IMG/VR virus record: IMGVR_UViG_2579778929_000006
Strand: one strand, 5' to 3'
Length of the DNA: 14,869 nucleotides
DNA from: a virus
Lineage: Duplodnaviria; Heunggongvirae; Uroviricota; Caudoviricetes
Below, piece by piece: positions 3,110 through 8,344 of the stretch (the first letter of the stretch is position 1; each line of letters begins with the position of its first letter). Both the position numbers and the translations under genes were made by a program. The notes below the pieces were generated by a model, which worked only from the letters and a program-made list of their open reading frames with translations, had not been told where the DNA came from and made no database searches.

Positions 3110-3516
3110 TGAATAGCAGATATGCAGTGATTGAAAATGGCACCGTGACCAACATTATCGTGTGGGATGGTGAAACAGTATTCTCCGCAGGAGATAATCA
3201 ACTGTTTATGCCCATTCAGGATAATGCAGGTATTGGCTGGTCATGGTCAGATGATGGCGGTGTATTTATTCCTCCGCCTGCCCCAAAAAAAACACCAGAA
3301 CAACTGGTTGCAGAAGCCAAAGCGGAAAAACAGACCAGACTTGATTTTGCGACCACAAAAATTGTCGTCTGGCAGACAAAGTTGCTGATGGGTCGCAAGC
3401 TCACGGACGAAGAAAGCACACAGCTAAATGCCTGGATGGACTACATCGACGCGGTGACGACAATCGACCCCTCCACCGCGCCGGATGTCATCTGGCCTGA
3501 ACTGCCGGAGGAGTAG
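3109..3516 (+). CDS. Tail fibre assembly protein (Tfa; Mu U / P2 gpG / e14 TfaP type)
   Basis: 135-aa ORF with start overlapping the tail-fibre stop (taATGa). C-terminal …LNAWMDYIDAVTTIDPSTAPDVIWPELPEE is the conserved Tfa C-terminal signature. Confidence 0.65.
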   Translation: MNSRYAVIENGTVTNIIVWDGETVFSAGDNQLFMPIQDNAGIGWSWSDDGGVFIPPPAPKKTPEQLVAEAKAEKQTRLDFATTKIVVWQTKLLMGRKLTDEESTQLNAWMDYIDAVTTIDPSTAPDVIWPELPEE

Positions 3517-3675
3517 GCCATTCAATATCTGGCGCACTGGAGGTATCAACCAGCTCCAGTGCATCCAGATAATCCAGCCACAGATTAAACTGCACTTTTC
3601 ATCATCAGACAATCGTCCAGGCGCGAGCCTGGATGCTGGCATCTCTGCCCAATTTAAATTTGAGAGGTAATTATG

Positions 3676-4227
3676 TTAACAGTTAATCCACCAGTATGTG
3701 CCGGGTGCCTGCGGGTAAGTGGCGGCGGCAACCTCGTGAACCATCCCCCAATCCAGAGCTGTGGAGGCATTGGCTATGGTGGCGGCGGAGATAACCTCCT
3801 TCCACTCATTGCGGCTCTTACTGAGCTCAATCTGACTCTCCAAAATATCGACAAAACGCTCCAGGTCATTATTGAGACACGCGCTCCACTCACTGACGCG
3901 TGAGTGATCCACGCTTGGGCCCATCAAGCCCCAGTGAAAAGGATGCAGTAAGAACCGACTCCCAGGATTCGCCTTACGTTCAGACCCTGCAAGAAAAATG
4001 ATATTAGCGACTGATTCAACATTGCTAAGGTTATGGGTCTTTACTGGGATTGGTAGGGCCTTTAGAAAGTGATAAGCAGTAAAACCTGCAACGAGGTCAC
4101 CGCCCGGACTGGAAATGTAAATGTTTAACTCAGTCGCCCCCTGATTGATAGCTCCAAGGCAATTGCTAATTAAAGCGTTAACGGTGGACTGATTTACGGG
4201 CACCGTGAAATTCATAGTATGCAGCAT
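3676..4227 (-). CDS. ClpP-fold (peptidase S14/S49-like) serine protease homologue, orphan
   Basis: Minus-strand ORF with AGGAGA 5 nt upstream of ATG at 4227-4225 (the track ORF starts one codon earlier at a GTG). NIYISSPGG aligns to the ClpP YINSPGG motif. A Ser lies 28 residues after SPGG in NVESVA, the same spacing as ClpP Ser97, and a His follows 22 residues later in RFLLHP (ClpP His122, spacing 24). The third catalytic residue was not confirmed. Confidence 0.5.
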   Translation of the reverse strand: MLHTMNFTVPVNQSTVNALISNCLGAINQGATELNIYISSPGGDLVAGFTAYHFLKALPIPVKTHNLSNVESVANIIFLAGSERKANPGSRFLLHPFHWGLMGPSVDHSRVSEWSACLNNDLERFVDILESQIELSKSRNEWKEVISAATIANASTALDWGMVHEVAAATYPQAPGTYWWINC

Positions 4228-4294
4228 CACTATCTCCTTGTTTAGTTAGTGGACACATTACCCTGGGAGCAATAAAAAACATAACGCATACTGC

Positions 4295-4740
4295 ATGCTT
4301 AGTTGGTGACCGGCGATCTAAGTTTAGCAAGGATGCATATCTGAAGGCGATACGCTGGTGGTCTGAAAGCGTGACCGCCTCGGTCGCAGCATGCGACATC
4401 TTGTTGGGTTAGTGGAGGAACTGCGGGAGAAAGGTGTTAACTTCCGGAGCCTGACGGATAGCATCGATACGAGTACGCCTATGGGGCGCTTCTTCTTTCA
4501 TGTGATGGGTGCCCTGGCTGAAATGGAGCGAGAGTTTATTGTCGAACGTACTAGGGCGGCTTTGCCGCAGCACGACAAGAAGGGAGGAACGGTGGGCGAA
4601 AGCCAAAGCTGACAGTAGAACAATGGGGGCAGGCTGGCAGGTTGATTGAATCGGGAATATATCAGCAGCAAGTCGCACTGATTTATGATCTGGATATTTC
4701 AACGGTGTATAAAAAATTCCCTGTAGCAAGTAAACCATAG
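4295..4740 (+). pseudogene. DNA invertase (serine recombinase, Pin/Gin/Hin/Cin family), disrupted
   Basis: Translation across frames gives EGDTLVV*KRDRLGRSMRHLVGLVEELREKGVNFRSLTDSIDTSTPMGRFFFHVMGALAEMEREFIVERT…, then after a frameshift RKPKLTVEQWGQAGRLIESGIYQQQVALIYDLDISTVYKKFPVASKP*. This matches invertase sequence from the middle of the catalytic domain through the C-terminal HTH. Defects: in-frame TGA at 4364-4366 where Trp is expected, a frameshift near 4590-4600, and most of the N-terminal catalytic region missing (ATGCTT at 4295 followed by an apparent deletion). Confidence 0.7.
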
Positions 4741-4766: not shown

Positions 4767-5462
4767 TTATGCACTATTTTTAGGTCTTGTAACCCGAGGT
4801 GGGAGTTGTTTGGTTATATGTTCAAGTGATTTTTTGCCCAAGATAGTTCTTTGGACAAAACTTTCTATAGCTTCTAGCATTTGTTCGAACTCACTTTTAT
4901 TCGGGCTCCAACTGCGATGTGCGGCGGCGTTTCCTGCATCAATTACTGAAGATATAACGCATGCCTCAGTGTCGCCTATGACTCCATCTTGTTTTAATTT
5001 TTCAACTTTTTCACCAAGCGGCAAACCGGGGTGAATTTGTAACAGTTCAGCAGTTCGATCAAAAATCGTCCGTAAACCGATGGACGAAAGAATGAAATGG
5101 TCAGAAGTATATGAAGAATACATTTCATTAAATATTTGAAAGAGCTGACGATCAACTGATTCAAGCTTGGATAACCATATCGGAGCTTGAAATGTTTCAG
5201 CGGCAGGATAGGTAGTGATCATATCTATAGGCGTTTCTACAAATTCACCATCACGATATTCGTGGGTAGTATGCTCACTGAAGTGTTCGTTGTGGTGATA
5301 GAAGACAGTATCACAGCCATTGCATTGGAGTAGGTGATGGTAATGGTACCCATAAACTGGATATTGGGAATCCTCCCAGCTAGTGGTTAGCTTCCCATGC
5401 ACAGTGCAGTTACGTAACCCACCGCATGTAGGGCAAAGAGCCTTGAGTATTTCCTTTTTCAT
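4767..5462 (-). CDS. Hypothetical protein: N-terminal zinc ribbon plus C-terminal HEPN-like (DUF4145-type) domain; candidate defence/abortive-infection factor
   Basis: 231-aa ORF. Cys pairs C10-x2-C13 and C47-x2-C50 (CPTCGG…CNGCD) flank a His/Tyr-rich stretch. The C-terminal helical region carries GNAAAH, which I recall as the signature of Pfam DUF4145. GC content is visibly lower than in flanking genes. The RBS is weak. Confidence 0.5.
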   Translation of the reverse strand: MKKEILKALCPTCGGLRNCTVHGKLTTSWEDSQYPVYGYHYHHLLQCNGCDTVFYHHNEHFSEHTTHEYRDGEFVETPIDMITTYPAAETFQAPIWLSKLESVDRQLFQIFNEMYSSYTSDHFILSSIGLRTIFDRTAELLQIHPGLPLGEKVEKLKQDGVIGDTEACVISSVIDAGNAAAHRSWSPNKSEFEQMLEAIESFVQRTILGKKSLEHITKQLPPRVTRPKNSA

Positions 5463-5810
5463 AAAGTCTCTGATTCTATATGTAGGTTAAGACCACTATT
5501 AGCTATACGGACCTAATAATCAATCGTGTGCAGATACAAAAAAGCCCGTATAGCGGGATTTCATGTCACTAAGGGCCGCGGCTACTTTGCGTATCTTTTT
5601 TGTCTTCTCACCGTCTGGCCGGTATTTTGCTGAGACTGCTTATTTCCAGTTTTTACTAGTGCTGTACTGGTACTGCCCAATCATGATTGGTGGGGGACGG
5701 AGTTGAGACTGCAGCCACGTCGTATGCAAGAACGCGCTGCGGTTGGCTGGTGAACTTTCGATAGTGCGAGTATTGAATGATTTCCAGCCGTTACAGATTT
5801 TACGTGTTTA

Positions 5811-6059
5811 TTAGTGAACAAACCACTCGTCAGCAGATTCCCAGGTATCTTTCAGAGTCTCCTGAACAAAAGTTTTTGCAGAATCCTTATCTGCGGTGCG
5901 TGTAACAGAAAGGCCATCATTGCTGGTGGCTTTTACTAACACCTCAACATCGTCATAACGCTTACTGATGCGTCGGGTTAATTCTTCCTTTAACGCATCC
6001 ACAGCACCGGTTGGCATTTTAGTCATTTTTTCTTTGGCTATGCAGATTTCAATACGCAT
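5811..6059 (-). CDS. dinI: DinI-family protein (DNA-damage-inducible protein I homologue)
   Basis: 82-aa [14 protein letters not shown]…[11 protein letters not shown] closely resembles E. coli DinI (MRIEVTIAK…ETWESADDWFV). GGAGGG RBS upstream. Confidence 0.8.
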
Positions 6060-6074
6060 AAAAGTCCCTCCATA

Positions 6075-6090
6075 CTGTGTTTGTATACAG
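6075..6090 (-). promoter_or_regulatory. LexA (SOS) box upstream of the dinI-like gene
   Basis: CTGTgtttgtatACAG is a perfect CTGT-N8-ACAG. The 20-mer 6073-6092 (TACTGTGTTTGTATACAGCA) matches the consensus TACTGTATATATATACAGTA at 16 of 20 positions. It lies 16-31 bp upstream of the dinI-like start codon. Confidence 0.55.
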
Positions 6091-6120
6091 CATTATTTTT
6101 AACTGTATGGATAAACAGTG

Positions 6121-7218
6121 TCAAGAGGTCTTATTTCTGCTCCTTTGGAGCTCTTCAAAACGATTATGTAAAGATTTCGGATACAGTTCGGTATATACCT
6201 GCCATAGCACGTTTAATGAACGATGCCCTGTAACTTGGGCGACTTCCTCAATACTAAAACCAGCCTCAAATAAGCGACTTGCCCCTTCTCTACGCAAATC
6301 ATGGTATCGCAGATCCTTAATACCTAATTTGCTTCTTACTCTCTGAAATCCCGCAGTAACAGAAGTGCTGTTATATGGAAAAATGAATTCCGATTTTTGG
6401 GGCTGTCGTTGGACGATATCCCAGGCTTCCCCAAGCAAGGCTACTTTCATGTGGTTACCTTCCTTTTTGCGTGGATCTTTCCTGTCTCTTACGAGTATAG
6501 ATTTTTGTTCCTGGTCGAGATCTTCCCATCGTAACCGGCATACTTCTCCGATTCGCATACAGGACCATACAGAAAATTTGAGGATATCAACGAACGGAAT
6601 TTTTGAGCATTTATGAGTAGATCGTTGTTGAAGGCCTGCAATGAGCATGTCCAGTTCATCAGATGCTGGTCTACGATTACGACGGTTTGATTTACCAATC
6701 AAACCAAGTTTAAGTAGATATGGGCGAGCGCTTTTCGCCGGGTTTGATGTGTAATTAATTCCGTATACAGGTTTGGCCGCATCCAGAACACTGCCAAGAT
6801 AACTAACATCGTGGCTGACTGTTGCAGGACCTGCACCAGCGTTGTTTCTTAGCCTGCAATGTTCAATTACGTCATTTTCTGTCAGTTCAGATAGTTTGAT
6901 CGCGGAGATGTCACTATCCATAAGCAGTTCCAGCACATATCTTTTAGTACGGCCTGCTTTACCTCCGGCATTTGGGTCATTTAAATATTTGTGTAGTAAG
7001 TCACGGACTGTAAGTCCGTCAACTGCATTTGATGATGGAATGCCATATAGATCTAATTCCATCACTTTCTGTGTGCCCCATGTTTTGGCATGAGCATGTT
7101 TAGGGAATGTTTTGCTTTCCCTGTAAGTGATAACACCTTTTTCTTTGATAATCACATTACAGCGATAGCGTGGTGTGCCATCGGATTTTAGTCGTTTCTC
7201 TATGTTATAGTACGCCAT
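6121..7218 (-). CDS. Tyrosine site-specific integrase, candidate dusA-associated integrase
   Basis: 365-aa ORF with C-terminal …LRYHDLRREGASRLFEAGFSIEEVAQVTGHRSLNVLWQVYTELYP, consistent with the H-x-x-R … Y catalytic signature of tyrosine recombinases. GAGG RBS. Start codon is 89 bp from the divergent dusA start. Confidence 0.85.
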   Translation of the reverse strand: MAYYNIEKRLKSDGTPRYRCNVIIKEKGVITYRESKTFPKHAHAKTWGTQKVMELDLYGIPSSNAVDGLTVRDLLHKYLNDPNAGGKAGRTKRYVLELLMDSDISAIKLSELTENDVIEHCRLRNNAGAGPATVSHDVSYLGSVLDAAKPVYGINYTSNPAKSARPYLLKLGLIGKSNRRNRRPASDELDMLIAGLQQRSTHKCSKIPFVDILKFSVWSCMRIGEVCRLRWEDLDQEQKSILVRDRKDPRKKEGNHMKVALLGEAWDIVQRQPQKSEFIFPYNSTSVTAGFQRVRSKLGIKDLRYHDLRREGASRLFEAGFSIEEVAQVTGHRSLNVLWQVYTELYPKSLHNRFEELQRSRNKTS

Positions 7219-7306: not shown

Positions 7307-8344
7307 ATGCACGATAATCATGAAACACAAAAAATTAATCAAACCAGCGTGATGCCTGAAAAAACTGGTGTTTACTGGAATTCTCGGTTTAGCATTGCTC
7401 CTATGCTCGACTGGACGGACAGACATTGCCGCTATTTCTTGCGTCTGCTTTCCCGCAATACGTTGCTGTATACCGAAATGGTGACCACAGGGGCGATTAT
7501 TCACGGTAAAGGTGATTACCTGGCGTACAGTGAAGAAGAACATCCGGTAGCGTTGCAACTCGGCGGTAGCGATCCGGCGGCGCTGGCACAGTGTGCGAAG
7601 CTGGCAGAAGCGCGTGGATATGATGAGATCAACCTGAATGTCGGCTGCCCGTCTGACCGGGTGCAGAACGGCATGTTTGGTGCGTGTCTGATGGGTAATG
7701 CGCAGCTGGTTGCCGACTGCGTGAAAGCGATGCGCGATGTGGTGTCGATTCCGGTGACGGTGAAAACGCGTATTGGCATCGACGACCAGGACAGCTATGA
7801 ATTTCTCTGCGATTTCATCAACACCGTTTCCGGCAAAGGCGAGTGTGAGATGTTCATCATCCATGCACGTAAAGCCTGGCTTTCGGGGTTAAGTCCGAAA
7901 GAAAACCGTGAGATCCCGCCGCTCGATTATCCGCGTGTGTATCAACTGAAGCGTGACTTTCCGCATCTGACAATGTCGATTAACGGTGGTATCAAGTCGC
8001 TGGAAGAGGCCAAAGCACACCTGCAACATATGGATGGCGTGATGGTCGGGCGCGAGGCGTATCAGAATCCGGGTATTCTGGCGGCGGTAGACCGGGAGAT
8101 CTTTGGTTCCTCGGATATCGATGCCGATCCGGTGGCGGTAGTGCGCGCCATGTATCCGTACATTGAGCGTGAACTCAGCCAGGGGACGTATCTCGGTCAT
8201 ATTACCCGGCATATGTTGGGCTTGTTCCAGGGTATTCCTGGCGCGCGGCAGTGGCGGCGTTATTTAAGTGAAAATGCCCATAAAGCGGGTGCAGACATTA
8301 ATGTGCTGGAACACGCGCTCAAACTGGTGGCGGATAAGCGTTAA
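7307..8344 (+). CDS. dusA: tRNA-dihydrouridine synthase A
   Basis: 345-aa ORF. …[37 protein letters not shown]…[14 protein letters not shown]… matches E. coli DusA. The true start is uncertain (in-frame ATGs at 7307, 7322 and 7352), and the first codons may be island-derived. Confidence 0.9.

Follow-up and report, generated by a model that had tools for sequence, protein, structure and literature searches.

[quoted passage not shown]

The stretch of DNA analyzed here (the window, 14,869 nucleotides of a Caudoviricetes virus record) matches the chromosome of E. coli CT29 (NZ_CP032073) at 100% identity. It covers the right-hand end of a prophage whose integration site, the 5′ end of dusA, is targeted by a described family of integrases (PMC4482086). 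No tRNA genes were found in the window. The genes of this region, in the order of their coordinates, are:

up to 3516, plus strand: baseplate and tail-fibre genes
3488..3624, minus strand: inverted tail-fibre-assembly fragment
3676..4230, minus strand: ClpP-like gene (Pfam CLP_protease, PHROG 94)
4337..4740, plus strand: Pin/Cin-type invertase pseudogene, decayed and frameshifted
5462..4767, minus strand: zinc-ribbon/DUF4145 cargo gene, 231 aa (Pfam DUF4145, E = 8.8e-10)
6059..5811, minus strand: dinI-like gene, 82 aa (Pfam DinI, PHROG 189, alignment with 1GHH, RefSeq WP_001514811.1)
7218..6121, minus strand: tyrosine integrase gene (int), directly upstream of dinI (Pfam Phage_integrase; RefSeq annotation)
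7307..8344, plus strand: dusA, adjoining int

The ClpP-like gene resembles a head-maturation protease and is an orphan, with tail-fibre assembly genes on one side and the invertase pseudogene on the other. This position is odd for a capsid protease, and the gene may be cargo or a remnant. The invertase pseudogene and the inverted tail-fibre-assembly fragment look like a decayed invertible tail-fibre switch.

The product of the dinI-like gene can be assigned firmly to the DinI family from its sequence. It matches Pfam DinI (PF06183) with 71 bits, against a cut-off of 24.2 (E = 1.1e-19), and the match covers residues 16-80 of the protein and positions 1-63 of the 63 in the profile. The protein also matches PHROG 189, 'RecA filament binding protein DinI' (E = 1.4e-30), and its RefSeq entry is named 'DinI-like family protein'. 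The alignment with E. coli DinI (PDB 1GHH) runs from end to end (E = 3.8e-13) and includes the C-terminal TWESAD(D/E)WFV helix; the acidic, DNA-mimicking helix that characterizes the family aligns here to ETWESADDWF of 1GHH. The gene has a Shine-Dalgarno sequence, GGAGGG, at 6071..6066 and its ATG at 6059. DinI homologues are present in 162 phage records.

A predicted two-operator promoter that travels with dinI

A reading of this DNA from its sequence only had placed a LexA box just upstream of the dinI-like start. This box is found at 6090..6075 on the minus strand (CTGTATACAAACACAG), 15 nt before the ATG, and has the exact form CTGT-N8-ACAG. A single box had been counted, however, and a second exact one (CTGTTTATCCATACAG, 6118..6103) had been missed. 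The elements of the promoter region, all on the minus strand, are:

6124..6119, minus strand: -35 hexamer TTGACA, perfect consensus, overlapping the int stop codon; top promoter score in the window
6118..6103 (20-mer 6120..6101), minus strand: LexA box 1, CTGTTTATCCATACAG, filling the spacer between -35 and -10
6101..6095, minus strand: predicted -10 element from consensus scans, TAAAAA (17-bp spacer) or AAAAAT (18 bp)
6090..6075 (20-mer 6092..6073), minus strand: LexA box 2, CTGTATACAAACACAG, over the predicted transcription start

The two boxes are the only CTGT-N8-ACAG matches in the 14.9-kb window, where 0.14 would be expected by chance, and none of 200 shuffled sequences contained two or more. 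The looser pattern CTG-N10-CAG is not enriched in the window. A heterology index was built from 28 published E. coli LexA sites, and its values are approximate. On this approximate scale box 1 has an index of 4.8 and box 2 of 4.9, both in the range of the proven sites of lexA, dinI and sulA, and the next-best LexA-like site in the window has an index of 13.1.

The best sigma-70-like site of the whole window is the predicted dinI promoter, and the annotation of phage mEp460 (JQ182728) lists this site as a promoter. Box 2 starts 4 nt beyond the -10 element and thus lies over the expected start of transcription, the promoter being predicted rather than mapped. Three sequence marks of a LexA-regulon gene are found at this locus, namely a box of low index, its overlap with the predicted promoter and start, and its conservation in orthologous loci (see below). 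Two operators placed across the core promoter are the geometry of tightly repressed SOS genes, such as lexA, recN and the colicin genes. The TGA with which int ends (6123..6121) lies within the -35 hexamer, and there is no terminator between int and dinI, so that int transcripts would enter the LexA operators.

A comparison was made among 84 loci that encode close relatives of the DinI-like protein, most of them from IMG/VR (a search of genome contigs gave 4 loci). Seventy-two of them hold upstream sequence. Both boxes and the -35 hexamer are kept in 72 of these 72 loci, the hexamer having 1-2 base changes in 4 of them. Variation is confined to the 8-bp spacers of the boxes, and the CTG/CAG arms are untouched. 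The homology among these loci starts exactly at the -35 hexamer, in at least four unrelated upstream contexts, which indicates that promoter, operators and dinI move as one module. Of 5426 complete E. coli genomes, 3176 have a match to a 2.6-kb query covering int, dinI and cargo. Among more distant phage dinI genes, those of Klebsiella phage Kp4887-1 and of Citrobacter and Enterobacter prophages likewise have strong LexA boxes upstream. The dinI gene of an Stx2c phage has two LexA boxes with the same geometry, and in P2/186-like phages a LexA box precedes a tum-like gene.

Control of the dinI-like gene by LexA is strongly supported by the strength of the motif, its position over the predicted promoter, its conservation across contexts and published precedent. 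By analogy with these precedents, the present promoter would bind LexA and be inducible. The result is of use chiefly for annotation: the prophage dinI genes matched in many complete E. coli genomes can be placed in the SOS regulon, under a promoter with two defined operators.

The downstream gap, the cargo slot and the expression of the DUF4145 gene

The zinc-ribbon/HEPN-like gene had been noted downstream of dinI on the same strand, about 350 bp away. This is the gene at 5462..4767, and the gap in front of it is 348 nt long (5810..5463). The gap had been described as holding only a weak hairpin. The weakness is confirmed, but there are two hairpins (A and B) rather than one:

5742..5709, minus strand: hairpin A, stem of the dinI terminator, with a broken pair (C70-A101) and no U-run in the window
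5708..5538, minus strand: conserved non-coding spacer module, about 170 nt, containing the perfect 14-bp palindrome CCAATCATGATTGG (5690..5677)
5557..5545 and 5543..5538, minus strand: hairpin B and its U6 run, at the end of the spacer module

The first ~105 nt of the gap are the 3′ untranslated region (UTR) of dinI, which ends in hairpin A. Over 14 distinct sequences 97% of the cells in this hairpin are paired, with three compensatory pairs, indicating that it is a real RNA hairpin. Hairpin A followed by a T-run is a classic intrinsic terminator, with a folding energy of -19 kcal/mol in mEp460. The T-run is found in 32 loci and is absent from 47, the present window included, and the hairpin here has -12.6 kcal/mol, with shuffled sequence folding equally well. 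Recombination junctions are concentrated just past the stem of hairpin A.

The spacer module is shared with loci that carry other cargo, in AH04, FDAARGOS_943, O8:H8 and a locus to be referred to as L099 (a restriction enzyme, ipaH, and a DUF4145 gene 84% identical to the present one). It is also found once behind a gene other than dinI, in E. coli O8:H8 (L005). The module has no Rfam match and no conserved open reading frame (ORF), and Rfam searches of the whole window at gathering thresholds, and of positions 5380..6200 with permissive E-values, gave nothing meaningful.

Hairpin B, at the end of the module, has -9.6 kcal/mol here, compared to -19.4 kcal/mol in AH04 and L099, where it is a strong terminator. 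Its G+C stem has shrunk from 6 bp to 4 bp and the U6 run is kept. This weak form is common to all 13 DUF4145-carrying loci. In the ipaH variant of the spacer (L004, L007 and L008, from E. coli FDAARGOS_943, Shigella flexneri and E. coli ECMA0423) hairpin B is absent, and as a result ipaHd, which encodes a type III secretion effector, is co-oriented behind a LexA-controlled dinI with no recognizable intrinsic terminator. The first ~190 nt of the untranslated gap are rich in C and poor in G (C/G ratio as high as 2.0, no lower than the window's 95th percentile), a composition that favors the loading of Rho. The gap as a whole folds no better than shuffled sequence (z = -0.48), and a large structured RNA is unsupported.

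The position after dinI is a typical cargo hotspot. Among the relatives, 25 different sequences are found downstream of dinI, among them DUF4145 genes (13 loci), a convergent invertase (23 loci), ipaH (5 loci), a restriction-modification pair, acyltransferases and others. In the 23 invertase loci an intact gene of 187 aa lies directly after the dinI hairpin, convergent with dinI. Similarity to AH04, with its restriction-enzyme cargo, ends directly after the U-run of hairpin B, and similarity to L099 runs on into TATCTG.ACACGATTGAT; the stretch conserved in L099 includes the TTGATT at 5523..5518. This hexamer is part of a candidate promoter for the DUF4145 gene:

5523..5495, minus strand: TTGATT, 17 bp, AATAGT (5500..5495); scores 8.8 by position weights, at the window's 99.99th percentile

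About 35 combinations of site and spacer are equally strong in the 29.7 kb of both strands, or about one per 850 nt. The candidate is a consensus match only, of a kind that about 9% of 75-nt stretches would contain by chance, and L099 does not conserve it. The site is suggestive of a promoter belonging to the DUF4145 gene itself. In the homologues from other genera, the best promoter-like site lies 37-51 nt before the start codon.

These homologues (67-70% identity) are found at prophage ends in Citrobacter, Enterobacter and Atlantibacter, and not downstream of dinI. No LexA box was found within 450 nt upstream of the homologues in six other contexts. The homologues (L091 and L092-L097) repeatedly lie beside SOS-type cargo, including a umuD-like Peptidase_S24 gene, a umuC-like IMS polymerase gene, SRAP and dinI, and these neighbors carry strong LexA boxes. 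In E. coli the cassette is present in only 49 genomes, in one context and at 99.5% identity or more, so that the linkage of dinI and DUF4145 is without independent replication. The independence of the cargo is indicated by the 25 downstream variants, the boundary after hairpin B, the promoter-like site, and the stand-alone homologues without LexA boxes. Most likely, the DUF4145 gene is a separately inserted cassette and not part of a damage-controlled transcript.

The protein encoded by the cassette has a Cys4 zinc ribbon (C10, C13, C47 and C50) followed by a HEPN-like DUF4145 domain. Residues C13, C47, C50, R131, R136, H182 and R183 are invariant or nearly so, and C10 is a cysteine in 11 of the 12 homologues that cover this position. 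An AlphaFold model has a pLDDT of 83. With Foldseek, the C-terminal domain of the model finds only HEPN domains in the PDB, with probabilities of 0.99-1.0 and weak E-values of 0.03-0.2. PADLOC had no model that matched DinI or the cargo.

We consider, with a probability of about 0.7, that the locus consists of a self-contained, portable SOS module (sigma-70 promoter, two LexA operators and dinI-like gene) followed by an independent cassette. A module of this order would belong to temperate enterobacterial phages. In the undamaged lysogen, LexA dimers on box 1 (between -35 and -10) and box 2 (at the start) would block RNA polymerase. After DNA damage, RecA-stimulated self-cleavage of LexA would free the promoter, and the 82-aa DinI-like protein would be made. 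As in E. coli DinI, this protein presumably uses its acidic C-terminal helix to bind RecA filaments, and it may thereby tune the co-protease activity of RecA, and hence the SOS response and prophage induction. Most transcripts would end within the 348-nt gap, whether at hairpin A, through Rho acting on the C-rich stretch, or at hairpin B and the U6 run behind it. The zinc-ribbon/DUF4145 gene, with a layout like that of the defense RNase RAZR, would have been acquired separately, as a cassette of one gene placed directly behind hairpin B. Its expression most likely starts at a promoter of its own, and readthrough from the SOS promoter would add at most a minor contribution.

The earlier proposal of SOS control stands for the dinI-like gene, by motif, position, conservation and precedent, but its extension to the cargo through readthrough is not supported. 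That extension rests on shared orientation and weak terminators only, and it is opposed by the cassette structure, the promoter-like site, the hotspot and the stand-alone homologues. As both terminators are weak in the window, appreciable readthrough could occur, and some leaky SOS-dependent readthrough is possible. SOS control of the DUF4145 gene by this route is nevertheless unlikely.

In its full form, this alternative takes dinI and the DUF4145 gene as a functional SOS operon, in which readthrough past two weak hairpins boosts a HEPN-type defense or abortive-infection gene. The two genes share a strand with no gene between them, and both hairpins are impaired, A by its broken pair and missing U-run and B by a stability about half of that in AH04 and L099. 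Moreover, the cargo is co-oriented with dinI in all three variants that share the spacer (DUF4145, restriction enzyme and ipaH), the Gifsy prophages offer a precedent of a LexA operon led by dinI, and the DUF4145 homologues elsewhere lie amid SOS-type cargo (umuDC-like genes, SRAP and dinI). On the other hand, the transcript would have to pass 348 nt of untranslated RNA whose composition favors Rho termination, and a U6 run that still follows hairpin B. The cassette starts only after this hairpin and has its own promoter-like site, and the 84%-identical homologue in L099 sits behind a strong hairpin B. In other genera, none of the homologues follows dinI or has a LexA box within 450 nt. In addition, RAZR (PD-T7-4), a ring-activated zinc-finger RNase of the same architecture, works from its native promoter and does no harm before it is triggered (PMC13017515). 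A functional operon of this kind is thus improbable. It is similarly doubtful that the decay of terminators A and B in this lineage lets LexA cleavage raise a RAZR-like zinc-ribbon/HEPN RNase specifically during DNA damage or prophage induction. If it did, abortive infection or superinfection exclusion would be primed by damage, with a borrowed dinI promoter connecting this function to the SOS response. Real readthrough would link SOS signaling to the expression of a phage-defense gene, a minority view on current evidence.

A second alternative concerns the RNA of the gap itself. In Klebsiella, the small RNA DinR is processed from the dinI mRNA (PMC10907235), and the dinI 3′ UTR in the window (hairpin A, with or without the spacer to 5538) could likewise give an SOS-induced small RNA. 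This possibility is compatible with a portable SOS module and a separate cassette, and does not exclude it. The ~105-nt UTR is nearly invariant over the 25 downstream contexts, hairpin A has its three compensatory pairs, and the spacer module recurs behind other genes. Against these stand the lack of an Rfam match, the folding of the whole gap like shuffled sequence (z = -0.48), the absence of covariation in helix 1 of the UTR, and the location of the DinR seed in a Klebsiella-specific stretch. With dinI 95-100% identical among the related loci, covariation tests have limited power, and the loci are too alike to separate constraint from recent ancestry. For sRNA-17 of E. coli K1, from an mEp460-like prophage, no motif of the present region was found in the sequence files of that paper. 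Such an RNA is rather improbable here.

The remaining alternative, that the LexA boxes are chance matches or relics and dinI is constitutive or expressed only by readthrough from int, from which no terminator separates it, is very hard to reconcile with two exact boxes against 0.14 expected, both on the promoter, with CTG/CAG arms that are kept while the spacers vary across related loci and genera, and with the LexA dependence of the homologous Gifsy loci (PMC3121763, PMC8072944).

Comparison with known systems

A prophage dinI gene controlled by LexA is an already documented kind of element, and the present locus is a further member. The only new detail of the dinI element is the two-operator promoter that travels with the gene. 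The closest precedents are the dinI homologues of the Salmonella prophages Gifsy-1, -2 and -3, which have a LexA box and stand at the head of an operon that LexA controls and that also contains an antirepressor gene and irsA (Lemire et al. 2011, PMC3121763). Nalidixic acid induces these homologues 4.5- to 23-fold (PMC8072944), and their non-polar deletion has no detectable effect on induction (PMC3121763).

There are differences, however, in the arrangement. There is a single box in the Gifsy loci, which belong to the early region and come after the genes for replication, whereas the present locus has two boxes and lies between int and the tail-fibre/cargo region. In Gifsy a small antirepressor gene (gfoA/gftA) follows directly after dinI and is itself followed by irsA, all in one operon. 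Here there is no conserved small ORF after dinI, and 348 nt with two hairpins separate dinI from the next gene. The contiguity of downstream genes with dinI, with no terminators between, that defines the Gifsy-type operon is therefore not found at this locus, where hairpins A and B interrupt the gap. A Gifsy-like antirepressor ORF in the gap was considered and rejected, as the ORFs are of at most 46 aa and are not conserved: in most relatives a TAA interrupts the 46-aa ORF (TAATTAACACG), and insertions and deletions break the other frames.

Control of a chromosomal dinI has been verified in Klebsiella by LexA ChIP and by induction with mitomycin C (PMC10907235). The chromosomal dinI genes of E. 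coli, Salmonella and Klebsiella encode the same fold family and share the TWESADxWF C-terminal helix with the present protein, for which an identical residue is printed at 36 of the 83 columns of the alignment with 1GHH. A LexA box lies over the promoter and start in both the chromosomal and the present genes. The Salmonella dinI likewise has two boxes, at the similar distances of 19 and 42 bp. Both boxes are strong here, in contrast to the second Salmonella box, which is weak (heterology index 17.6). The present gene also differs from chromosomal dinI in being phage-borne and mobile as a module, and its 3′ UTR is unrelated to the seed region of Klebsiella DinR.

In coliphage 186 (Tum/Orf97) and its P2-like relatives, a LexA-repressed promoter drives a DinI-like polypeptide. 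In the 186-like Erwinia phage EtG a strong LexA box precedes the fused Tum-DinI gene, and in Klebsiella P2-like phages one precedes a pair formed by a small ORF and dinI. The DinI part of these phages comes fused to an antirepressor or behind one; no such partner is detectable in the present locus.

The slot after dinI resembles the moron or exchangeable-cargo loci between the tail-fibre genes and int of lambdoid prophages, and there is nothing unusual here. The slot can be recognized as a cargo hotspot, and its junctions cluster at the terminator hairpin of dinI.

The cargo itself is best compared with RAZR. Each is encoded by one small gene and has an N-terminal Cys4 zinc ribbon and a C-terminal DUF4145/HEPN domain. 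There are differences in the conserved residues. RAZR has a catalytic Arg-x7-His pair (R146/H154); in the cargo H182 is invariant, but the residue eight positions earlier is I174, and the invariant arginines are R131, R136 and R183, so that the spacing of RAZR is absent. Residues 68-70 are EYR in the cargo, and not AGN as in RAZR. Sequence and profile searches of the PDB with the cargo gave no match, and RAZR entries are not among its top Foldseek matches, in libraries whose copies may lack the RAZR entries. The shared layout does not establish membership of the cargo in RAZR, and the cargo may represent a distinct RAZR-like defense family carried by prophages. The gene, previously an 'orphan', can now be placed with the zinc-ribbon and DUF4145 layout of the recently characterized RAZR defense RNase.
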